Sequence record: OQ540978.1
Strand: one strand, 5' to 3'
Source of the DNA: Escherichia phage pEC-N1203-2Af.1
DNA length: 64,000 nt
Both the position numbers and the translations under genes were made by a program. Under the pieces are notes generated by a model. It did not search any database, was not told the origin of the DNA, and saw nothing but the letters and a program-made list of their open reading frames with translations. This document shows positions 6,701 to 45,607 of the stretch, one piece after another (within the stretch, counting starts at the first letter, position 1; every line of letters begins with the position of its first letter).

Positions 6701-8131
6701 AGCCATCTTCTGTAGTTCAGCAGCTTTCTCTACAAAGTTATTAAAGTCTTCACCATCACGAGCTTTGAATCGATTTGCTTCATTATAGAAAGTCTTGTAA
6801 GCATCAATGAAGTCACGGTCAGCTTGTGTGCGATTCTTAACGTCAAGTGGACTACCGGTGAAGTGTCCAGATGCTCTAAGAGAAGTTAATTCACGGTCTA
6901 GGTTATCTAGAACATCTGTAAGAGCTTTCGTGTTATCCTTGGTGTAGTCAGCCATTGCATCTTTCATAGCAACTGCTTTCTTCTGGTTGTGCTCATTATC
7001 AGCGAATGCTTTACCACGAGTCTTAGCAGGAGAAGCCAAAGGATTGAGTCCCGGAATGTTAGAATGCTCTTTCTGAGCAGAAGCAGCTTTCTCAGCACGA
7101 GCTTGGTCTGTATTAAGAATACGCTGAGCAGCAGGAGAGTCTACAGCAACAGCATCAGTAATACGGAATCCATTCTCATCCAGAAGATTAAGAGCGGAAG
7201 CAGCGTTAGCAGTTTCAGCTTTAGAATAAGCTTCTTTCAGTTCATCAACATTCTTAGCACTTCGAATCAGTTCATCATCAGCAGCAATGTCAGTCTTTGC
7301 ATACTCTGGAGTATTCTTGAAGACAGCAGAATCTGGACGATTAATCAAACCATGAACGCCACCAACTGCACCACCGAATGCAGCACCCATAGCGCCTTCT
7401 TCAATAGCACCTTCTAAGACATTAGCAAAGGTTGTGTCATCACCATGTTTGTTCTGAGCTTCAGCAGCACCAACAAGAGCACCACCTTTAGCACCAGCCA
7501 CTGCGTTACTAGCAACGTTCTGACTGATACGACCAAGTGTAGACTCAGCTGTACCAACAGCACCCGGAAGGATTCTCTGAGCTGCATAGTTAGCACCACC
7601 AACTAGAGCGGCATCCAGAACAGACTTATCTTCTCCCTCTTCAGGAGTTTGGTCTGCATATGCACGACCTGTCTCACGACCTGCAATGATAGCAGCGGCA
7701 GCTAATGGGTTAGCAACAGTCAAACCAATATCACCAACAACGCCAGCATATTGCCCAGCAGTTTTACCAATCCCATCCTCAATCTTATCCATACGTTCTT
7801 TCAGAAGGTTCTGAGAGTTCTCTTGGATACGCTTTCCATAACTAGTTTGTGCTCCAGCTAGATTCTCACCAATCTCAACTAAACCACCAATACCTTTAGC
7901 AGCACTAGCTGCAATATTTGCACCACCAGATTGAAGAGCATTTGACACACCTTGAGCAAACTCACCTATAACACCACGTTCTTCTTGTTGTGGTTGTGCT
8001 ACTGGCTGTTCCTCAGGAATAGAGCCACCTGCTGCCTTATATTGTTCTCTCATTTGAGCTTGCTGCTCCGGAGAGGCATTCAGATACGCAGGAGCTTTGG
8101 AAGCTTCTTCCCACGGTTTAATGTTAGCCAT
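3713..8131 (-). CDS. Large internal virion / ejection protein (coiled-coil rich, 1472 aa)
   Basis: ORF 3713-8176; likely start is ATG at 8131 (MANIKPW) preceded by AAGGAG; Ala/Glu/Lys/Arg-rich coiled-coil composition; last gene of late operon. Confidence 0.55.
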   Translation of the reverse strand: MANIKPWEEASKAPAYLNASPEQQAQMREQYKAAGGSIPEEQPVAQPQQEERGVIGEFAQGVSNALQSGGANIAASAAKGIGGLVEIGENLAGAQTSYGKRIQENSQNLLKERMDKIEDGIGKTAGQYAGVVGDIGLTVANPLAAAAIIAGRETGRAYADQTPEEGEDKSVLDAALVGGANYAAQRILPGAVGTAESTLGRISQNVASNAVAGAKGGALVGAAEAQNKHGDDTTFANVLEGAIEEGAMGAAFGGAVGGVHGLINRPDSAVFKNTPEYAKTDIAADDELIRSAKNVDELKEAYSKAETANAASALNLLDENGFRITDAVAVDSPAAQRILNTDQARAEKAASAQKEHSNIPGLNPLASPAKTRGKAFADNEHNQKKAVAMKDAMADYTKDNTKALTDVLDNLDRELTSLRASGHFTGSPLDVKNRTQADRDFIDAYKTFYNEANRFKARDGEDFNNFVEKAAELQKMAENVSPEMKKAIGGLKKLKGMPEGFNPIQDAYTLNNTAKFMSNQDRGWTSLTDDGFRETSSPSLVMNTLGAAKYALNRFSSQRARSQRVKQQESNSEAIRSLARGDLEVARAKSTVDEARDKMEEEPVVDDIKFKTQNDVETEPVREPSSSTVTEENLPSSAPQEAPLTARDLVAQRRAIRQAEQRRAEEEAAAQEAPVEQSPQAEPLPARNPLEERRAMEQQRAQEEAAQAPEPTVEEPTVKAEPLPARAPKAPEEAVQEVKPESGIEYLAAMSSTARQVAKDRATRFAKSLYSNAAKAKATAENFLAYKGDPLELMRRIRREDNAINTERHEEMARNQRATQKGIATAKNNAVRSEFAEWVKERGLPEDIATKALRAEESGLGGNVTNLESLKRRSERLYQKQREAEFDRLYQEALEENKAFDKKDAPKLVDQKKELQSEIDTLIDSEPLRPAQKDAMRRLMNDFVDGKFKSSEKAGREEALEVGQMKDIWDGFINTYNREVNAFNKANKNSQYEAAAKHLQAREERLATLRNRAQARSDAKAAVENERKTLEAIAAQKSEIEKMMEGLPKPVREAQESRTLKQLAAHHDKNSPVPPEKFRSYIERIHNAESDYLDRQRRLTDAEEDARQAKWNKMYEQAEEMDRKFDIDKRVKRSEELKAAQKRENDLMAVQRQRDDIHRRLMHTLEDKGISKEDAEAFAGSYMDNRYALLDKPMTPTEHQNARSRIEADVEKFAKKYESMTPIEKEIVKITGDTEGKLDNLDADTRKAVEEAQKVDSDIKKLQEEELEMEKIRSALPDDEKSQANSDILESIKQQEEVFADKVEKAFLSGKSLDELASVAEVLDRVHGADKAGNNRRFVRALQTAAENKKKYGDNPVAWFSADDYSAIAKLGASSAGGNKSRALEKIFGSTAEQAKSKLLGRDDVAKMRRVIEENPDIKIPSYKTTNRTEYLKFLEKFNDEGKPKIKRGSLSEKLERSKRQSRLRVRVRPKE

Positions 8132-8169
8132 AACGTCTCCTTTTATAAATAAAAATGTCCTACCCCCTA

Positions 8170-8178
8170 TATACATTA
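8170..8178 (-). promoter_or_regulatory. TAATGTATA motif (candidate phage-sigma-dependent late promoter element)
   Basis: Minus-strand TAATGTATA about 38 nt upstream of ATG 8131; identical 9-mer upstream of gene 24947-25699. Confidence 0.4.
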
Positions 8179-8198
8179 TAGAAGGCAGGACTTAGGTC

Positions 8199-9848
8199 TT
8201 ATTGCGTGAACCAGCTAGTGTCTTCGACAGCTGATAAAGCACCGTTCAGTTTAGGATTGGTTGCTGCACCACCAACATAATCTTCTGCTTCATCAGAGAA
8301 AACACCGAGAGGGTCATAGAAACCGCCAGAAGGAATTGCACGGTTAACCAATGCAGTAGCTCTCTTCTTATCCATACCAGAACCAACATAAGCGTTGATA
8401 GTATCTCTCTTAGCATCAGCAACACCTTTCATAGCAGAGGTATGACCGACGTTAGCCTGTTTACGAGCATAAGCAAGAGCAGAATCAGTAGGACGCCACC
8501 CAGACTTCAGAGCGAACTTGTTACCTACACGGATAAAGATTGATGGGTCTTCTGCAAAATGTCCCAAGTCTTCTTCAGTAAGAGAACGAGTAGAACCGAT
8601 TTCAGCCCTTGCGGAGTTCATGATAGCCTGCATGTAAGCAGAACGAGCCGTCTGGTAATCCTTGTCCTTAACAGCTTTATCAGCCAAGTCCAAGTCTTTA
8701 TTAGACTGGTTAAACAAGCCACCTTTCTCTGCCCACTGCTTAGCGATAGTACCTTCAGCCGTATTCTGAGCGTTACGAATTTCTTTCGTGGGGAAGTTGA
8801 AACTTTGAGCAACTTGTTCAGCACGTTCAGCCTTAACTTTATCACGATAGCCAATCAACTCTTTCTGACGTTCAAAGTTCATATCAGTTCTCTTTTCAGC
8901 AGCACGACGAGTTTCCTCGGCACGTTCACGCATAGCCTGCTCTTGAATCTGTTGACGTCTATCCCATTCAGCATTCTGACGTTCTTCACGAGCAGCATAC
9001 AGAGCTTCTTTCTGAGCAGGATCTACAGCTCTCATCTTCAGTAGAGATGGGTCTCCGTTAGCAATAGCAGCTGCGATCGAGTCTTGAGAGAAGCCTTGTT
9101 CAATCAGAGCATCACGGTTAGCTTCCAGTTGCTTCTTAGTCTCATCTTGATTAGCCATTCCCTGACCAATCTGGAAAGCTTCAATAGGAGACTTACCTGA
9201 CATAATGGAAAGACCTACACCCATCAAACCTGTGTAGAAACTAGAGTTCTGATAGAATGGTTCTTTCTGTAGCTTGTTCCAAGCTTCCGAAGGGTCTTTA
9301 GCTTTCGCAACTTGCAAGATATCGTTGTTAACACGTTCCTGATCTTTAGCACGAGTAGCAGCAGTCATTCCATCACCAGCGTCTTGTCCTTGAGCAAGAG
9401 TATTAATCACACCTTGTGCCTGTTCCACCTGAGAAGGAGTGAACTCCATAGGACCAGCTTCTAACGGTTTAGTAGGAGGTGTTACCGGAAGAGGTTCTGA
9501 TTCTGGAGGAATAGAAGAAGGAGAAAGTCCAGCAGCTTGCATGGTTTCTTGATTCTCAAACTCAGGAAGAGTTACAGCCTGTTGTGCCTGAGGTTGTACA
9601 TCATTTGGGATATCAGAAGGAAGGCCGTTACTCTGAACAGGATTCAACATATTCTGATAATCTACTGAAGTTTGACCTACAAGAGAGGAAAGCCCAGCAG
9701 GTATAGCAGGACGTTGATACATAGAAATATCTGCTGTCTGAGTAGGTCTAGCCATATAAGGAGAGGCCGAAGCCGCTCCCGGATTAACACCATAGAAAGT
9801 ATTTCTCGGGTCGCGACTTCTGACCTGAGCATAAGTTGTCTGTTGCAT
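8199..9848 (-). CDS. Internal virion / structural protein
   Basis: ORF 549 aa in late operon between Q/N-rich proteins and large coiled-coil protein; Pro/Gln-rich N-terminus. Confidence 0.45.
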   Translation of the reverse strand: MQQTTYAQVRSRDPRNTFYGVNPGAASASPYMARPTQTADISMYQRPAIPAGLSSLVGQTSVDYQNMLNPVQSNGLPSDIPNDVQPQAQQAVTLPEFENQETMQAAGLSPSSIPPESEPLPVTPPTKPLEAGPMEFTPSQVEQAQGVINTLAQGQDAGDGMTAATRAKDQERVNNDILQVAKAKDPSEAWNKLQKEPFYQNSSFYTGLMGVGLSIMSGKSPIEAFQIGQGMANQDETKKQLEANRDALIEQGFSQDSIAAAIANGDPSLLKMRAVDPAQKEALYAAREERQNAEWDRRQQIQEQAMRERAEETRRAAEKRTDMNFERQKELIGYRDKVKAERAEQVAQSFNFPTKEIRNAQNTAEGTIAKQWAEKGGLFNQSNKDLDLADKAVKDKDYQTARSAYMQAIMNSARAEIGSTRSLTEEDLGHFAEDPSIFIRVGNKFALKSGWRPTDSALAYARKQANVGHTSAMKGVADAKRDTINAYVGSGMDKKRATALVNRAIPSGGFYDPLGVFSDEAEDYVGGAATNPKLNGALSAVEDTSWFTQ

Positions 9849-31064: not shown

Positions 31065-32606
31065 TTAGTAGCTCTGATTCCATCTGCTTACGTTTGCCTC
31101 ATACAAAGAAGCGCTTCCGTAGCTAACATCATGCTTAGAGCGACCACGATGTGTAACAGAGCACGCTGAATAACGCATTGCATCCATTAAGTCATCATGT
31201 TCTTTAATAATCTTACCAACCTTACGGTGATATCTAGCTTTCTCTTCGAATAGCTTAGCGTTAGCGGCTGTGTTAAAGACTTTAAAGCGTCCACTCATCA
31301 TTCTTTCTCGGATATCTGTGATTCCCGGTTCTACAAAGAAGTTCTTTTTACCATCCATTCCAATTTTGTTGTAGAAGGTCTCACTCTGTACGTTAACTCC
31401 TGCATTCTTATAGAATTGAGCAACAGATGAACCACTACCTTTCTCAGTATTGTCCGCATCATGCGGTAGGATGACAGGAATCCACTGACCACGACCATTA
31501 ATAGCTGGAGCATGATACACTGGAGTAAAGCCACCTTCTTTATATGAGTCGTAAACATAGATAGTATCCGTGTTTGCGTCGTAAGCTGTCCAAACAGCAG
31601 CAGTTGGGTGATCAATACCAATATCAATTGCACAGACACGTTTCCACGTATCAGGAATTTCGAATGGTTCACATTTAATTGTGTCATCCGATACATCATA
31701 AATCAAACCACTTCCTAACAATGGCATACCTTTTGAACGCATCTCTAATTGCCACGCTGGAATACCTTCAGTCATATCTTTTATATCTTGGTCAGTGATG
31801 TGTCCACCTAAGTCTGCATGAGCATCCCACCAAGAAGCATTCTGGAAATATAGAGAACCTGTGTTCTCATCTCCTTCACCTTTCATAAATTTATCTACCA
31901 GTTCAGTTAAACCGTTCTCTGGTGTAGCTGTAATTGTAACTAGACCTTTAGTTGTGAGTGTACGTGTGACGCACTGTGCGAATATAGCCATAGACTCGTA
32001 TGGATCTTCTTCGTCTAACCAAATGTAGTCAACTGTTGCACCCATCAATGTGTGTTCACCCTGTTGGGTTGAACGGAATTCTAATGTACTTAAACCGTCA
32101 AACTCTCCTCTCTCATTTTGATGTTTGATTTGTACGATTTGAAGTTTGTTACCATCTCGTTCTATCGTATCAATGACGATAGCATCACGAGGAATGACAC
32201 CTGTCCCTAATAAATTTGTATCCTTTCCGATAGGTGTACCAAACAGTTCCTTTTGCAATACCTTCCTTGTGGAATCCCCTGTAATACCAACTGCCCATGC
32301 TAAGATAGGTCTTTTAAATTTATATCCTGTCCACCAAGTTGGGTAGCGACCTGTGACATGACAAGCAAACTCGTATGCCTCGCTGTAAGATTTACCAACA
32401 CGGTTCGCTGCACACAAGAATCTAAAGCGATGCTTCAATCCTGCTGCATAAAATTTCTTTTGGAAGTCATACGCCTTGAAAGACAAAATCTTATTATACT
32501 TCCTCCATTGGTCACGCTCTTTCAACATATTCAATAGTGCTTTCTTTTCCTCTACACTAAGGTTGTTACCAGTTAGAGCTTCATAAATTTGTTTATCTAA
32601 TGACAT
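31065..32606 (-). CDS. Terminase large subunit
   Basis: ORF 513 aa; N-terminal ATPase (Walker A-like CAANRVGKS, Walker B-like DYIWLDEED) and C-terminal nuclease-like acidic residues (CAIDIGIDH...). Confidence 0.8.
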   Translation of the reverse strand: MSLDKQIYEALTGNNLSVEEKKALLNMLKERDQWRKYNKILSFKAYDFQKKFYAAGLKHRFRFLCAANRVGKSYSEAYEFACHVTGRYPTWWTGYKFKRPILAWAVGITGDSTRKVLQKELFGTPIGKDTNLLGTGVIPRDAIVIDTIERDGNKLQIVQIKHQNERGEFDGLSTLEFRSTQQGEHTLMGATVDYIWLDEEDPYESMAIFAQCVTRTLTTKGLVTITATPENGLTELVDKFMKGEGDENTGSLYFQNASWWDAHADLGGHITDQDIKDMTEGIPAWQLEMRSKGMPLLGSGLIYDVSDDTIKCEPFEIPDTWKRVCAIDIGIDHPTAAVWTAYDANTDTIYVYDSYKEGGFTPVYHAPAINGRGQWIPVILPHDADNTEKGSGSSVAQFYKNAGVNVQSETFYNKIGMDGKKNFFVEPGITDIRERMMSGRFKVFNTAANAKLFEEKARYHRKVGKIIKEHDDLMDAMRYSACSVTHRGRSKHDVSYGSASLYEANVSRWNQSY

Positions 32607-36188: not shown

Positions 36189-36455
36189 ATGACTATCAAA
36201 GAAATTAGATTATCTAATGGCTTTTCTTGTTTTGTTGGCGATCAATCTATCATGTTTAACACGCTTGATGGTCAGCTTACAGTGCCTATTATCACTTTTT
36301 GCAAAATGGACTTTCAACCGGCTAGAAACTGGTTAGCATTTGCTGGCCTTGAAATCACCCGCGATGATTTTCGTTCAATTTATTTTGACGGTGGCTTATC
36401 ACTGGCGAATCTGCTCAATCATGGACTAATTGAGGGTGATACCAATGGGGAATGA
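36189..36455 (+). CDS. Hypothetical protein
   Basis: ORF 88 aa. Confidence 0.4.
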   Translation: MTIKEIRLSNGFSCFVGDQSIMFNTLDGQLTVPIITFCKMDFQPARNWLAFAGLEITRDDFRSIYFDGGLSLANLLNHGLIEGDTNGE

Positions 36456-36643: not shown

Positions 36644-37009
36644 ATGTGGTTTATTAAATTCATCGTTAAGATGGTTGTAGGCTTTTTTCTGGTTGTTCTT
36701 CTGTTAGGTGTCCTGCTATCGGCTATGGGTAGCGTTAAGGCTGCAACGTTTTCCCCTGATACGGTTGACGGTTTACAGTGTACCTATCTCGTAGAAAACT
36801 ATGAAACTGGTAAAAAGTCACCTAAAGTTATTATTTTGCATGTAAATGATTTTGATCATGTGCAATCAGATAGTAAAACTATTCTACTGGTAAACGAAAC
36901 TACCGGTAAACAAATCACGGTCAATCACTTGATGCGCTCATCGTTGACGCTCTTTGATGAGTCCATGAATGAAATTGAGTCCGGTAATGGTCAATGTGTA
37001 AATCCATAG
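36644..37009 (+). CDS. Signal-anchored / secreted protein, unknown function
   Basis: ORF 121 aa; N-terminal TM/signal MWFIKFIVKMVVGFFLVVLLLGVLLSAMG. Confidence 0.45.
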   Translation: MWFIKFIVKMVVGFFLVVLLLGVLLSAMGSVKAATFSPDTVDGLQCTYLVENYETGKKSPKVIILHVNDFDHVQSDSKTILLVNETTGKQITVNHLMRSSLTLFDESMNEIESGNGQCVNP

Positions 37010-37085
37010 GCTTAATCTTTCTCCTTTATTGTGCCGTAGTCATGCCTATGGTCATAATCTATCTGATGTTTTAAAGCCTCCTGAA

Positions 37086-37112
37086 AGCCTCGCCATGAGG
37101 CTTTTTTCTTTT
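37086..37112 (+). terminator. Rho-independent terminator
   Basis: AGCCUC-GCCAU-GAGGCU followed by UUUUUUCUUUUC. Confidence 0.6.
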
Positions 37113-37268
37113 CTAAGGTGATTGTATACCTTACTCCCTTTTAGCTCGCTGTAGCGCGTTTTAGGCCGCCTATTGTTGCTTTACAAGCCGTTTTCTATGA
37201 TGTATCACGTGCGCCCGCTCTTTTACCTTCCTATAGTGAAAAAGTTTAAAATAATTTGCTTTGCCCTA

Positions 37269-37296
37269 TTGCACTTCCTGAAAGCTCACGTATACT
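37269..37296 (+). promoter_or_regulatory. Candidate sigma70 promoter (TTGCAC-N16-TATACT)
   Basis: -35/-10 hexamers with 16-bp spacer in the ORF-free region. Confidence 0.35.
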
Positions 37297-37332
37297 GATT
37301 TTCATCGGGTACGATGTAAAACATACGCCGCG

Positions 37333-37411
37333 CGCTCTTTAAAAATCAGGCTAGAAAGTGAAAAATACTTGAAAAAGTATTTGACAACTGGAAAGCCTAA
37401 CCTATAATGAG
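37333..37411 (+). repeat. 79-bp direct repeat, copy 1 (promoter module)
   Basis: Identical to 37552-37630; contains CGCTCTTTAA motif, AAATACTT/AAGTATTT inverted repeat, TTGACA and TATAAT. Confidence 0.8.
37381..37408 (+). promoter_or_regulatory. Strong sigma70-type early promoter (TTGACA-N16-TATAAT) with A/T-rich upstream element
   Basis: Consensus -35 at 37381-37386 and consensus -10 at 37403-37408. Confidence 0.6.
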
Positions 37412-37551
37412 CTTAGAAAGACAAGATGACCGCTCAAGTAACTCCCTAGTGAGTGAAGCAAGTCAGACGCAGGCAGGCGGATACCATTCCCCGGAATAAT
37501 CGCAGGTTATCTGATTATCAAATGGTGTTATGGGAGCCATACAGCTTTAAA

Positions 37552-37630
37552 CGCTCTTTAAAAATCAGGCTAGAAAGTGAAAAATACTTGAAAAAGTATT
37601 TGACAACTGGAAAGCCTAACCTATAATGAG
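37552..37630 (+). repeat. 79-bp direct repeat, copy 2 (promoter module)
   Basis: Identical to 37333-37411. Confidence 0.8.
37600..37627 (+). promoter_or_regulatory. Strong sigma70-type early promoter (TTGACA-N16-TATAAT)
   Basis: Consensus -35 at 37600-37605 and -10 at 37622-37627. Confidence 0.6.
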
Positions 37631-37904
37631 CACAAGTCAGCGATGACGTGAAACATCCCCGCTCTTTAAAAATTTATCATCTTGCCCTTTCGCATAGATT
37701 CACGCGAGATAAGGGAAAAGAATAAAAGAAGATGATAAAAAGAGTTTGACAAGCTAACACGACGTGTTAAGCTGTAAATGTAGTAACCGCTCTTTAACAA
37801 TATGGATCATAAGTTTAAGCCTCATCGCTTGATCTTCAATCAAACAAAGCTGATTGATATATCCTCCCAATAGCGGGAACGATGAAAAAAGATTAAAAAA
37901 GCGG

Positions 37905-37933
37905 TTGACAGCGAAAACATCATGGTCCATAAT
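37905..37933 (+). promoter_or_regulatory. Sigma70-type early promoter (TTGACA-N17-CATAAT) with upstream A-tract
   Basis: -35 at 37905-37910, -10 at 37928-37933, preceded by AAAAAAGATTAAAAAAG. Confidence 0.55.
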
Positions 37934-38735
37934 GAGCGTACTCACTAGGCAAATCACCGCTTAAGTGAAAAGCGAAACAACGGCTTACAGTTGCGTAGCG
38001 TGAGAAAGCACGCTGACAGATTTACCGCTCTTTAATAATTTAAACATTCTCATATATCGGTTGAATATGCTGGAAGATAATAACCATCGGAAAGCATACC
38101 AGATAAAACGGCGTAAGGCTCCCTAAAACATCAGGGTAAACAGTTTTACAATCCCTTAACTGGAAACGTCACCACTGATAAGCGGATTCATTGAGTACAC
38201 GCAACGGTTTAAGCTAATCGCCCACGGTTAAGGGTAGCGGCGGCCATCGCTAACACGGTGCTACAGTGAAAGAAACTAATCAGGGCAGACAAGTCCGACG
38301 AATTAACGCCCAATTGAGGGCGGCGGGGGATGGTTAAAGGGTAGCAAATTGCTATTTAACAATAAGGTTTAGTGTGAACGTTTACGATGCGAACGGCTTG
38401 AGATTCGTCTTATGATGAAAGTACATAGTCGGTTTATGTAGTAAACTTGCCGAAAGATATAAAACGCCGGAATGTTAGGCGGTTAGTGACTTTTTCGCAA
38501 TAGTATCCCATAGTGGGCGATGACTAGCGAAAGAGAGCTGATACAAAAGGATAGGCGGGAGCGAAAGCAAAGTAAACGATATTGCCGATGGTTACAGCAA
38601 TGTAATTAAATTGAATCGGACGCACTGCCTTATTGTGATGATTGATCATCGCTATCAGGTCGGCTTCGTTTATAGCGACTAATTAAAGATACCAGATGAA
38701 ACATCACGGATAAGGGAGCGGCAAGGTTAACTCCT

Positions 38736-38789
38736 GATAAGACCGCTCCGCTTATCAATATTTACTTAACATTGAGTGGATATTGATAA
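38736..38789. promoter_or_regulatory. Nested inverted repeats (GATAAG...CTTATC and CTTATCAATAT...ATATTGATAAG), operator-like
   Basis: 11-bp perfect inverted repeat separated by 18 bp plus an overlapping 6-bp inverted repeat, about 60 bp upstream of gene 38851. Confidence 0.4.
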
Positions 38790-38850
38790 GTCAATAATGG
38801 CTTAAAAGGCTCATAGCGAGCGGGGGCAATAGTGCCCTTACAATTGAAAG

Positions 38851-39759
38851 GTGAATATCATGGCTAAAATTTTCAATCTGGTAAAAGAATCCGGTTTTAA
38901 CGCACTGGCAAACAATATCCGCAGTAATAACGCAGCGATTAAGCAAGATGTTTCTAATTTTCTGTTAGGGCACTTGCAGCACTTCCGCAGCAACGGCAAG
39001 AAGTTAGATGTATTGCAGTCGGCGGTTGATTTTCTGTTAACCGAACGTTTCCGCGATATGGACGTGATCGCCACTGCAATTACTTTCTTAACTCCCATCA
39101 AGTTCAACACCGATGCGGCAAACGGTCGTAAAAAGTGGATTAATCTGGAAGGTGAGGCGAAAGCGAAAGAAGATGCGAAAGAAGCGCAAATTAAGGCCAA
39201 AATGGAACAAAACCGCGCTCGCTGGTCAAATGCTTTCGAAAACTTTGCTTTAGGCCGTGAAATTGAAGTTGATAATCCTAACTTTTACAAAGGTTGCAAT
39301 GACAACGTGGCGGCCCACCTTCAAATCCCGGCGAAAAATAAGGAAGATTTTAACCAAGATATTTACGCTTTGGTTGAACGCTTGAATGCAATCCGTATTG
39401 AAGTCAAATTGTTGGCTGATGAGCGCAATGGCGCTACCAGTGACAACACTATTGCCTTAAGTGAAGACGTGGGGAAAGTTAAAAAGTCCTTTGATTCACT
39501 CATCAAGAAAGTAACGGCCTCAACGGTAGCGATCTCTGACGATTATCTGATGAACGCATCAAGCAAGGAATTAGAATCACTCGATTCATACGCTGATGAA
39601 ATGGAAAAAGTAGTCAGTGAGATGCAGGACAAGCTGAACAACCTGCGCCAACGTATCGAAACTGCCACCACTATTAAGGCCAATGAGAAAGCAGCGGCAG
39701 AAGAGGAAGAAGTATTGCGTAAAGCGGCTGAAATTATGGCGGCACGTCAGGCGGCATAA
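38851..39759 (+). CDS. First early gene, hypothetical protein (302 aa)
   Basis: ORF with GAAAGG RBS; Lys/Glu/Ala-rich helical composition; E. coli-like GC-rich codons. Confidence 0.5.
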   Translation: MNIMAKIFNLVKESGFNALANNIRSNNAAIKQDVSNFLLGHLQHFRSNGKKLDVLQSAVDFLLTERFRDMDVIATAITFLTPIKFNTDAANGRKKWINLEGEAKAKEDAKEAQIKAKMEQNRARWSNAFENFALGREIEVDNPNFYKGCNDNVAAHLQIPAKNKEDFNQDIYALVERLNAIRIEVKLLADERNGATSDNTIALSEDVGKVKKSFDSLIKKVTASTVAISDDYLMNASSKELESLDSYADEMEKVVSEMQDKLNNLRQRIETATTIKANEKAAAEEEEVLRKAAEIMAARQAA

Positions 39760-39861
39760 GTAATACGATTATAATAAACATGAGGCGCTATCTTAACGGG
39801 TAGCGCCTTTTCTTTTATCAGTGCATTGATTCAGTGCATTAATCAAAGAATATAATCAAAG

Positions 39862-40586: not shown

Positions 40587-41030
40587 GTGACTAAATCTAA
40601 AATCAGCATGAAAGGCGGGCGTTGTTTTTCTATCTCTGAGCTGGAGAAAGAGAAACCAAAGGCAACCAATCACGTCAGTAAGCGCAGTTTAAAACGTCGT
40701 GCTGCAAAGGCTGAGGCTGAATCTCATATTCCTTCTAGTGTGGCAAAGCGTGTAGGCCATCGCGTTCATCGTGCTGATGCGTTATTGTTAGCCGATCATA
40801 AACGTTCTTTATTAAAGAGCGGGGGAGCTAAAACAGAAGAGGAGAAGAAGTTAGAAATCTTCTGTAATGGTCGCACCCGTGGTAAGCAGAAGTTTAAAGG
40901 TAGCACGAAAGACCCTCAAGCATTCCCTAAAAGTAGCCAGTGTGCGCCTGATGTTTTCTACGCAGACAGTAAACACAAATGGGGCGTTGAGAAATACATT
41001 GACCCCATCAAAGAGGCAAGGGTTAAGTAG
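40587..41030 (+). CDS. Basic hypothetical protein
   Basis: Within ORF 40464-41030; GTG at 40587 has AAGGAA RBS; Lys/Arg-rich. Confidence 0.35.
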   Translation: MTKSKISMKGGRCFSISELEKEKPKATNHVSKRSLKRRAAKAEAESHIPSSVAKRVGHRVHRADALLLADHKRSLLKSGGAKTEEEKKLEIFCNGRTRGKQKFKGSTKDPQAFPKSSQCAPDVFYADSKHKWGVEKYIDPIKEARVK

Positions 41031-45214: not shown

Positions 45215-45523
45215 GTGAAACAAAAGCATTTTATCATCTCAACCTTACTACTAATGACAACCATTGGTATCATCTCTGTTAATAGTGCAGAGATTGGAGT
45301 TAAGTATCAGAGTGTTCAGCAATGCACTCTTAAAGAGCATAGCTTAACTGGTATCAAAGAATCTCATGGTATGGTAAGAGATGGGCTTCTGTTTGTAGAA
45401 ACAACTTCTGGTAATCGTGTCATGGCTACTGATGGCAAAGAAACAAAGTATGCCTACTTCCCTGATACAACAGGCTACTACACTTTTGAAGAGAAGGATT
45501 GTAAGAAGTCTTTCTCTTTATAA
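45215..45523 (+). CDS. Secreted protein with signal peptide
   Basis: ORF 102 aa; MKQKHFIISTLLLMTTIGIISVNSAEIG. Confidence 0.5.
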   Translation: MKQKHFIISTLLLMTTIGIISVNSAEIGVKYQSVQQCTLKEHSLTGIKESHGMVRDGLLFVETTSGNRVMATDGKETKYAYFPDTTGYYTFEEKDCKKSFSL

Positions 45524-45532
45524 AAGAATCAA

Positions 45533-45607
45533 GTCCCTATAGTTAAAAGGATATAACAGATTTCTTCTAAAAATCCATTCTAGGTTCGAGTCCTAGTGGG
45601 GACGCCA
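45533..45607 (+). tRNA. tRNA-Arg (anticodon UCU), CCA encoded
   Basis: Manual cloverleaf: acceptor GUCCCUA/UGGGGAC, D-stem GUUA/UAAC, anticodon stem GAUUU/AAAUC with loop CUUCUAA, T-arm CUAGG-UUCGAGU-CCUAG, discriminator G, CCA. Confidence 0.8.

Follow-up and report, generated by a model that had tools for sequence, protein, structure and literature searches.

Positions 37010 to 38850 of the DNA analysed here, a stretch of 64,000 nucleotides (nt) from Escherichia phage pEC-N1203-2Af.1 (record OQ540978.1; hereafter the window), form most of a long spacer upstream of a homologue of the phiEco32 gene phi32_124, referred to below as gp124. This spacer probably serves a phiEco32-like (Gordonclarkvirinae) coliphage as its main region of early control, with the organization of a small ribosomal RNA (rRNA) operon. 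Taken as a whole, its sequence makes it probable that the early unit mimics the rrn operons of Escherichia coli and that host Nus factors are recruited for the synthesis and folding of a new large phage RNA. An earlier note on this DNA had described an early leader free of open reading frames (ORFs) and carrying sigma70 promoters. That description is supported: the region is the phi32_125/phi32_124 spacer, and its counterpart in phage SU10 is reported to contain sigma70 promoters (PMC4281155). The observation is thus confirmed and the earlier interpretation supported, while the array of boxA copies and the new large RNA family described below go beyond them.

The recurring motif and the predicted early promoters

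Region 37010–38850 matched 97 records of phiEco32-like podoviruses at 73–97% identity. The matching records belong to the Gordonclarkvirinae (Kuravirus, Suseptimavirus, and Nieuwekanaalvirus). The counterpart in phiEco32 is the 1.9-kb spacer of genes phi32_125 and phi32_124; the window is oriented opposite to the phiEco32 record. The features that make up the 5' half of the spacer, together with a boxA look-alike further downstream, are as follows (negative positions are counted from the start codon of gp124).

37269–37296 (+): promoter P0, possible and weak, tentative; TTGCAC-N16-TATACT, 8/12 to consensus; it would put boxA-1 into RNA
37333–37412 (+): module copy 1, with boxA-1 at 37334–37344, an A/T-rich upstream element with a palindrome at 37363–37382, and P1
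37381–37408 (+): predicted promoter P1, TTGACA-N16-TATAAT, 12/12; –35 at 37381–37386, –10 at 37403–37408
37552–37631 (+): module copy 2, identical to copy 1, with boxA-2 at 37553–37563, the same upstream element, and P2
37600–37627 (+): predicted promoter P2, TTGACA-N16-TATAAT, 12/12; –35 at 37600–37605, –10 at 37622–37627
37661–37671 (+): boxA-3, GCTCTTTAAAA followed by ATTTATCA, about 27 nt past the predicted P2 start
37746–37773 (+): predicted promoter P3, TTGACA-N16-TAAGCT; weak in this phage, 10–11/12 in relatives
37789–37799 (+): boxA-4, ACCGCTCTTTAACAAT; 12/12 to the rrn boxA GCTCTTTAACAA
37905–37933 (+): predicted promoter P4, TTGACA-N17-CATAAT, 11/12; predicted start at about 37940
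37997–38014 (+): boxB-like hairpin, AGCGUG-AGAAAG-CACGCU, with a purine-rich loop, 12 nt upstream of boxA-5
38027–38037 (+): boxA-5, the last copy (about –830), not followed by a promoter; 36 of 36 aligned phages share its core GCTCTTTAA without change
38351–38362 (+; about –509): degenerate boxA look-alike, GCTATTTAACAA, with A at the critical position 4; it does not fit GYTCTTTAANA

The motif CGCTCTTTAA occurs exactly at 37333, 37552, 37660, 37788, and 38026, always on the + strand; the one other exact copy in the window is located at 40812 on the – strand. Its fivefold recurrence had been noticed earlier, with coordinates that were off by 1–3 nt and with an additional 5' C that is present in only three of the five copies. 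The point missed was the apparent identity of the motif, which on sequence grounds corresponds to boxA, the site at which NusB/NusE are loaded in the rrn leaders of E. coli. The gamma-proteobacterial boxA consensus is GYTCTTTAANA (PMC5725501). All five copies (starting at 37334, 37553, 37661, 37789, and 38027) fit this consensus; all are on the transcribed strand, and together they span no more than 704 nt. In the entire window, 8 matches to the consensus were counted versus 0.64 expected. Three of these are situated outside the region, at 40810–40820 (–), 45328–45338 (–), and 31199–31209 (+).

The leader of the E. coli K-12 rrnB operon consists of the boxB hairpin GCCGCTGAGAAAAAGCGAAGCGGC, then AC, then TGCTCTTTAACAATTTATCAG. 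With their flanks, the phage copies read ACCGCTCTTTAACAAT (37786), CCCGCTCTTTAAAAATTTATCA (37658), and ACCGCTCTTTAATAATTTA (38024). When these were aligned locally to the rrnB leader, matches of 16–19 nt resulted, with a score reached by 0–1 of 300 shuffles. In boxA-3, 18 of 19 bases are identical to GCTCTTTAACAATTTATCA of the rrnB leader (0 of 300 shuffles reached this score). The same alignment revealed no homology to the rrnB leader past boxA and its flanks.

The array is a common trait of the group. Each of 27 close loci has 3–5 exact GCTCTTTAA cores in the 2 kb preceding the phi32_124 homologue, on the + strand only. Nine distant loci with enough upstream sequence, found on uncultivated contigs and described below, contain three exact cores each, mostly about 45–100 nt past a TTGACA-type promoter, and their last boxA is located at –870 to –936. 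Among these close and distant loci, lower counts were seen only where the contig is cut. Two of the distant relatives carry ACTGCTCTTTAACAATTTA, which is identical to rrnB over 19 nt. Nearly all promoters with at least 10/12 consensus bases in these 36 phages are followed by a boxA, placed about 10–140 nt into the transcript, and the last boxA lies at –825 to –936. The boxA sites are thus arranged as in rrn leaders, namely within predicted nascent RNA, with a promoter on the 5' side and 825–936 nt of untranslated RNA on the 3' side.

The boxB-like hairpin upstream of boxA-5 displays compensatory changes at five of its six pairs, and 84.9% of cells (one base pair in one phage) are paired versus 22–47% when the partner strand is slid out of register. 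Its position 5' of boxA-5 gives the rrn order, boxB then boxA. The lambda-type nut order, boxA then boxB, was not found; an N homologue was not searched for. Mutations at C4 abolish boxA function (PMC5725501). The look-alike GCTATTTAACAA has A at this position and is base-paired in helices H16/H17 of the fold described below; it is thus taken as a structural element and not as a Nus site.

The perfect duplication reported earlier was also recovered. It extends over 80 nt and not 79 (37333–37412 and 37552–37631; 100% identity; spacing 219 nt), and the palindrome AAATACTT/AAGTATTT is present in both copies, at 37363–37382 and 37582–37601. P1, P2, and P4 are the sole sigma70 matches of at least 11/12 on either strand of the window; all three are on the + strand and within 550 nt. 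Their number is not above chance (about two in simulation). What counts is their clustering, their shared strand, and their conservation; P4, for example, is present at about –940 to –960 in 27 of 27 close relatives. At least four sigma70-like promoters had been claimed. Three are indeed near-consensus, while the fourth, P3, is weak in this phage but has 10–11/12 consensus bases in relatives. Overall, the sequence points to a tandem series of sigma70 promoters, four or perhaps five in number, whose upstream elements are A/T-rich. The –35 and –10 hexamers, their spacing, and their conserved positions agree with sigma70 promoters. For the corresponding spacer of SU10, which separates CDS 120 from CDS 121, the genome paper reported three early promoters of the sigma70 type, so that the promoter part of our finding is already known in outline (PMC4281155). 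The promoter element recognized by the phage sigma factor gp36 of phiEco32, TAATGTATA (PMC4281155), has exact copies at 8170, 13398, and 25733, all on the – strand, and none in the studied region, which is consistent with a host-sigma70 early region.

Could CGCTCTTTAA act as DNA, that is, as an upstream part of the promoters or an operator for a host or phage DNA-binding protein? Two copies are located exactly 47 nt upstream of the –35 hexamer, in the duplicated module. The distances to the next promoter vary, however (47, 47, 86, and 116 nt), and the last and most conserved copy has no promoter after it. All copies in 36 phages are on the transcribed strand, the match is to the 11-nt RNA consensus plus rrn flanks, and the copy found buried in a helix is the very one with a deviating base at the critical position 4. 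We consider this explanation very improbable.

The large RNA upstream of gp124

The segment between the last boxA and gp124 is, by its pattern of sequence change, a genuine multi-domain structured RNA that represents a new family.

38020–38856 (+): noncoding RNA, large (about 835 nt) and structured (37 helices), reaching from the last boxA to where the next gene starts

For 27 phages (73–97% identical to the window), the 845 nt that precede the ATG of gp124 were aligned and folded with RNAalifold. The consensus fold comprises 228 pairs in 37 helices, with compensatory changes at 75 pairs. Pairing is retained in 99.3% of 6,146 cells, and 366 cells are doubly changed. Controls in which the 3' partner was moved by 1–3 columns gave 13–37 doubly changed cells and 6–12 such pairs, and 0 of 500 shuffles reached the observed values. 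There are 727 G-U cells, and pairing drops to 87% when the complement strand is read; these cells assign the fold to the + (transcribed) strand. The minimum free energy of the single sequence is –256 kcal/mol, with z = –6.3 on the + strand and z = –2.4 on the – strand. Compensatory pairs, a strand-specific fold, and the lack of a coding signal (see below) are what is generally required of a structured noncoding RNA.

These results bear on several earlier statements. The last kilobase had been called structured, which covariation, shuffles, and folding energy strongly confirm; a covariance search of the 38.0–38.8 kb segment across related phages had been suggested, and the alignment reveals heavily covarying structure over the last ~835 nt. 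Of the two options offered, a long structured leader or small RNAs, the first holds, in the form of one large RNA with several domains; nothing indicative of discrete small RNAs was found. The same kilobase had also been described as GC-richer, but the difference is marginal: the RNA half has 42.5% GC, which equals the mean of the window, versus 40.3% in the promoter half, with a peak of 47% at 38100–38399.

Domain I of the RNA is closed by H2/H3 (38039–38060 with 38295–38338) and domain II by H17–H19 (38359–38385 with 38572–38636); hairpins H29–H37 occupy the 3' part (38637–38838). BoxA-5 is mostly single-stranded in the fold, between H1 and H2. Invariant unpaired segments include ACGGTTAAGGGTAGCGGCGG at 38226 and GGCAAGGTTAACTCCTGATAAG at 38720. 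Among the close relatives, the latter forms an invariant internal loop (38720–38741) that contains the self-complementary GUUAAC, a possible kissing or dimerisation site. The motif GGTTAA(A)GGGTAGC occurs twice in the RNA, at 38228–38244 and 38331–38347. No continuous helix of the RNA is longer than the one formed by an inverted repeat with 19-nt arms (38751–38790, +; 84% complementary), composed of H34 plus an extension. This repeat shows strong covariation and is a candidate site for RNase III, whose cut could free the RNA from the gp124 messenger RNA (mRNA). A pseudoknot between two CAAUUG motifs (H15 loop and 3' tail) was considered and rejected, since inspection of the variants in TH34, PAS59, and Bas93 revealed no covariation. 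Judged by eye, the approximately ten GGA triplets in 835 nt indicate no excess of CsrA-type GGA in loops over composition.

No conserved ORF was identified in the spacer (37010–38859). Within 37010–38850 the longest ORFs encode 57 aa on the + strand, in agreement with the earlier statement of none over 60 aa on the coding strand, and 67 aa on the – strand. A conserved ORF had been named as an observation that would speak against a leader; none was found when the frames were checked across 27 relatives. In the last 845 nt of these relatives, the shortest value, per frame, of the longest stop-free stretch was 24–35 aa, and variable columns were distributed over the codon positions as 126/125/127, without a 3-base periodicity. 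Several database records carry short 'hypothetical protein' calls over the RNA, which we regard as spurious. Such annotations across the region in some records are what could be cited for hidden small protein-coding genes as the cause of the conservation. This is extremely improbable, given that no frame is open in all relatives (minimum 24–35 aa), that periodicity is absent, and that substitutions are pairwise compensatory.

A search of a large protein collection identified distant gp124 homologues, 67–70% and 47–49% identical, on uncultivated contigs; the distant RNA loci were reached only via these proteins. A profile of the close relatives matched the boxA-to-ATG stretch of the distant loci with E values from 1e-101 to 1e-17. 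In a purely sequence-based alignment of 36 phages (27 close and 9 distant), the distant sequences retain 60–80% of the mapped pairs versus 31–49% in slid controls, and 139 of 228 pairs are doubly changed yet paired in at least one distant sequence. Clearly maintained are the long-range helices H2, H3, H18, and H19 and the hairpins H15, H22, H27, H30, H32, and H34.

Helix H1, which would pair ATTTACC (38020–38026) with GGTGAAT of the Shine-Dalgarno region, behaves differently. It is predicted by the alignment fold and by the single-sequence fold, but both of its strands are invariant and lack covariation support, and in two distant groups it is 67% and 48% paired. Its interpretation as an rRNA-like leader-trailer helix fails in the distant relatives, and H1 is retained as a tentative prediction only.

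H1 also bears on the explanation that the 835-nt RNA is a purely cis-acting 5' leader of the gp124 mRNA, whose fold controls stability or translation and which has no function in trans. Control could be exerted through sequestration of the Shine-Dalgarno sequence in H1, as both folds predict, or through a loop between boxA and RNA polymerase that blocks access of ribosomes as at suhB and lambda N; Nus/boxA is known to repress a downstream Shine-Dalgarno at suhB, and lambda N from ~200 nt (PMC5725501). Moreover, no terminator separates the RNA from the adjoining gp124, and both are found in the same records. However, H1 never covaries and is lost in distant relatives that keep the core fold, 37 helices and long invariant unpaired segments far exceed the needs of known translational leaders, and the core is kept where gp124 is only 47–49% identical. 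We regard a purely cis-acting leader as unlikely, though to be taken seriously.

Another explanation is that the region serves as an origin of replication or as a signal for packaging or entry; transcription from the promoters would then make an R-loop or a primer, and the conservation would reflect a DNA function. In phiEco32 coordinates, the genome end is a few kb away, and the origins of T7 and T4 are marked by long stretches that lack ORFs and contain strong promoters. The tolerance of G-U pairs (727 cells), in turn, indicates strand-specific selection for RNA folding rather than for duplex DNA, and the length is kept almost without insertions or deletions at 73% identity. An origin or packaging signal is therefore scarcely probable.

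Neighbouring genes and related loci

The spacer is bordered by the following features.

36644–37009: phi32_125 homologue, the gene of the upstream operon, 5' of the spacer
37083–37114 (+): intrinsic terminator of the upstream operon, 10-bp stem GAAAGCCTC...GAGGCTTT, then a T-run
38846–38862 (+): Shine-Dalgarno AGGTGA and ATG (38860) of the phi32_124 homologue
38860–39759 (+): phi32_124 homologue (gp124), 299 aa
39782–39819 (+): strong intrinsic terminator that closes the promoter-boxA-RNA-gp124 unit, 12-bp stem, then TTTTCTTTTATC

The order within the predicted transcription unit is promoters, boxA copies, RNA, gp124, and terminator, with a length of about 1.9 kb counted from P4. In the records of SU10 (PMC4281155) and SU7, a terminator is annotated at the same place as 37083–37114. 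Past the terminator of the unit and ahead of the next gene (ATG 39871), a TTGATT...TATAAT sequence with a 19-nt spacer is present at 39828–39856 (+), and the SU7 record has a promoter annotated at the equivalent position. This suggests that the RNA-gp124 unit is transcriptionally separate from the early genes beyond.

The RNA and the gp124 homologues were found in the same 97 phage records, with the RNA always upstream. The PHROG of gp124 is a function-unknown family; no Pfam match above the cut-off and no sequence match in the PDB were obtained, and the AlphaFold model (predicted local distance difference test, pLDDT, 73) gave no informative fold match in the PDB or BFVD. The 121-aa (36644–37009) and 88-aa (36189–36455) early proteins belong to PHROGs named 'terminase' and 'polymerase', and several records are annotated likewise; given the size of these proteins, both labels are implausible. 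In Bas94, the 121-aa gene (7834–8199) is located several kb downstream of the spacer instead of upstream, indicating that early modules are shuffled between phages.

Comparison to Rfam 15 (including GOLLD, ROOL, OLE, introns, RNase P, 6S, and others) gave no match at gathering score in the region, and at E values up to 10 only sub-threshold matches, all far below the gathering scores. The sole match at gathering score in the 64-kb window is a tRNA-Arg (anticodon TCT) at 45533–45607 (+). A blastn search of 37320–38860 against 5,426 complete E. coli genomes returned one 33-nt chance match only; the element is thus neither prophage nor host sequence and has no extended homology to rrn. IMG/VR, searched by protein and by RNA motif, returned the same five phiEco32-like genomes only. 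A scan of metagenome and genome collections with an 18-base invariant motif revealed 59 loci. Eight metagenome contigs proved real by nhmmer, all of them close relatives, and none of the matches in genome collections was a real homologue. No description of the motif or of the RNA structure was found in the searchable literature, which does not include the two primary phiEco32 papers (Savalia 2008; Pavlova 2012).

Three of the distant uncultivated relatives (L094, 983–4000; L096, 955–4000; L097, 563–4000) have about 3 kb of gene-free sequence upstream of the gp124 homologue, with divergent genes beyond. Of this, 1.7–2 kb lie upstream of the promoter/boxA modules, contain ORFs of at most 69 aa, and could hold further noncoding elements. 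In Salmonella phage 7-11, a distant prolate-head relative, ~1.05 kb devoid of ORFs separate the first early gene (151) from the end of the genome (NC_015938, 88864–89916, – strand). This stretch has z = –4.5 on the transcribed strand and no sequence similarity to the phiEco32-type RNA. No boxA of the E. coli type and no nhmmer match were detected in the leader of 7-11, and its gp151 is not detectably related to gp124. The phage collection holds four distinct relatives of 7-11, which is too few for covariation analysis.

Proposed mechanism and comparison to known systems

In rrn operons, boxA is necessary and sufficient for the antitermination complex, which consists of NusA, NusB, NusE, NusG, SuhB, and S4 (PMC10250234). 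The modified polymerase resists Rho, elongates faster, and keeps its tether to boxA; the complex is believed to act as a chaperone for long-range rRNA helices (PMC10250234; PMC5725501). Protection from Rho by boxA extends to long noncoding CRISPR transcripts (PMC7665894).

From the motifs, conservation, RNA fold, and strand demonstrated above, we infer Nus recruitment, antitermination or chaperoning, and, as a further step, a role in trans. Nascent boxA RNA would bind host NusB/NusE, and the Nus complex (with NusA, NusG, and SuhB) would assemble on RNA polymerase, rendering it Rho-resistant, fast, and tethered to boxA. With a boxA behind every early promoter, each host polymerase would be Nus-modified before it enters the 835-nt untranslated RNA. 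This would ensure full-length synthesis, and possibly correct folding, of the ~835 nt ahead of the phi32_124 homologue, and transcription of the unit would stop at the intrinsic terminator past gp124. The RNA itself is probably a functional early RNA in its own right and not a passive spacer only; it would be abundant when infection begins and may act together with gp124. An independent function, as opposed to that of a simple leader, is favoured by its size, its 37 helices, and its invariant unpaired segments.

Several points speak against this interpretation. The searchable literature, again exclusive of Savalia 2008 and Pavlova 2012, contains no transcript, Nus-binding, or Rho data for the region. 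The spacing between the boxB-like hairpin and boxA is 12 nt versus 2–3 nt in rrnB; boxB is dispensable in rrn (PMC10250234). BoxC, a GT-rich element that follows boxA after 18–19 nt and is part of the leader-trailer helix, has no counterpart, as no TGTGTGGG-like element was found after any copy; H1, as stated, lacks covariation support and is lost in distant relatives. For the two module copies fixed upstream of a –35 hexamer, a DNA-level role is conceivable. rRNA itself has been reported to be intrinsically Rho-resistant (PMC5725501), and a highly structured RNA may resist Rho without help. Finally, a function in trans is conjectural, and the RNA could be a cis leader only.

The phage unit resembles an E. 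coli rrn leader in several respects, namely a tandem array of strong predicted sigma70 promoters whose upstream elements are A/T-rich, a hairpin of the boxB type ahead of boxA, boxA copies that match rrnB over 16–19 nt, a long untranslated structured RNA downstream, and an intrinsic terminator at the end of the unit (PMC10250234). It differs in having one boxA per promoter (five copies), no boxC, a longer hairpin-boxA spacing, an RNA without similarity to rRNA that is followed by a protein gene, and a closing helix that is short and unsupported. Chromosomal N-independent boxA loci of the host likewise function without phage N, share the consensus GYTCTTTAANA, and place boxA before a long noncoding transcript or near a Shine-Dalgarno sequence; these, however, have a single boxA, whereas here a virulent phage carries a boxA array before its own structured RNA. 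To our knowledge, there is no earlier case of a virulent phage using an N-independent rrn-type boxA.

In the lambdoid nut/N and HK022 put systems, RNA signals acting in cis just past the early promoters also modify host polymerase, and lambda nut includes a boxA. The order in nut is boxA then boxB, in contrast to the rrn-type order seen here, and lambda boxA is weaker than the full rrn consensus that the phage copies display. The RNA has no similarity to HK022 put (Rfam negative). T7 provides another parallel: its A1/A2/A3 promoters are very strong promoters for host polymerase near the genome end of a podovirus, from which transcription passes through an untranslated leader to the first early gene. 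That leader is shorter, contains an RNase III site, and is not known to have a boxA or a large covarying fold. In length (600–900 nt), number of helices, frequent phage association, and unexplained function, the RNA is similar to GOLLD, ROOL, and OLE (PMC12286853; PMC5737381), but no covariance model matches it, and it occurs in virulent coliphages, as a leader between boxA and a gene.

A bolder version of the proposed mechanism, which we think rather doubtful, is that the phage copies the cis-signals of host rRNA operons to borrow their antitermination/chaperone complex for folding a giant RNA that acts in trans. Such an RNA could be a scaffold or form a ribonucleoprotein with gp124. It could also be a homo-oligomeric ornate RNA like ROOL or GOLLD, given the GUUAAC in its invariant internal loop, or a decoy that, with five boxA copies per transcript, drains host Nus factors or other RNA-binding proteins as infection sets in. 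If true, this could contribute to host shut-off or to the defence-system resistance of this group, which the BASEL study reported for the systems tested (PMC11990801).

Large structured RNAs without an assigned function are rare, and almost none are found in genetically tractable systems. This RNA is present in phiEco32-like phages, and the BASEL isolates of this group, Bas87–94, plate on O-antigen-restored E. coli K-12 (PMC11990801). The antitermination strategy of the related phage 7-11 "remains to be defined" according to the authors of that work (PMC8948821). For phiEco32-like phages, boxA now provides a concrete candidate for processive early transcription. Their RNA also offers a natural non-ribosomal substrate for distinguishing whether the Nus complex is mainly an antiterminator or a co-transcriptional RNA chaperone.

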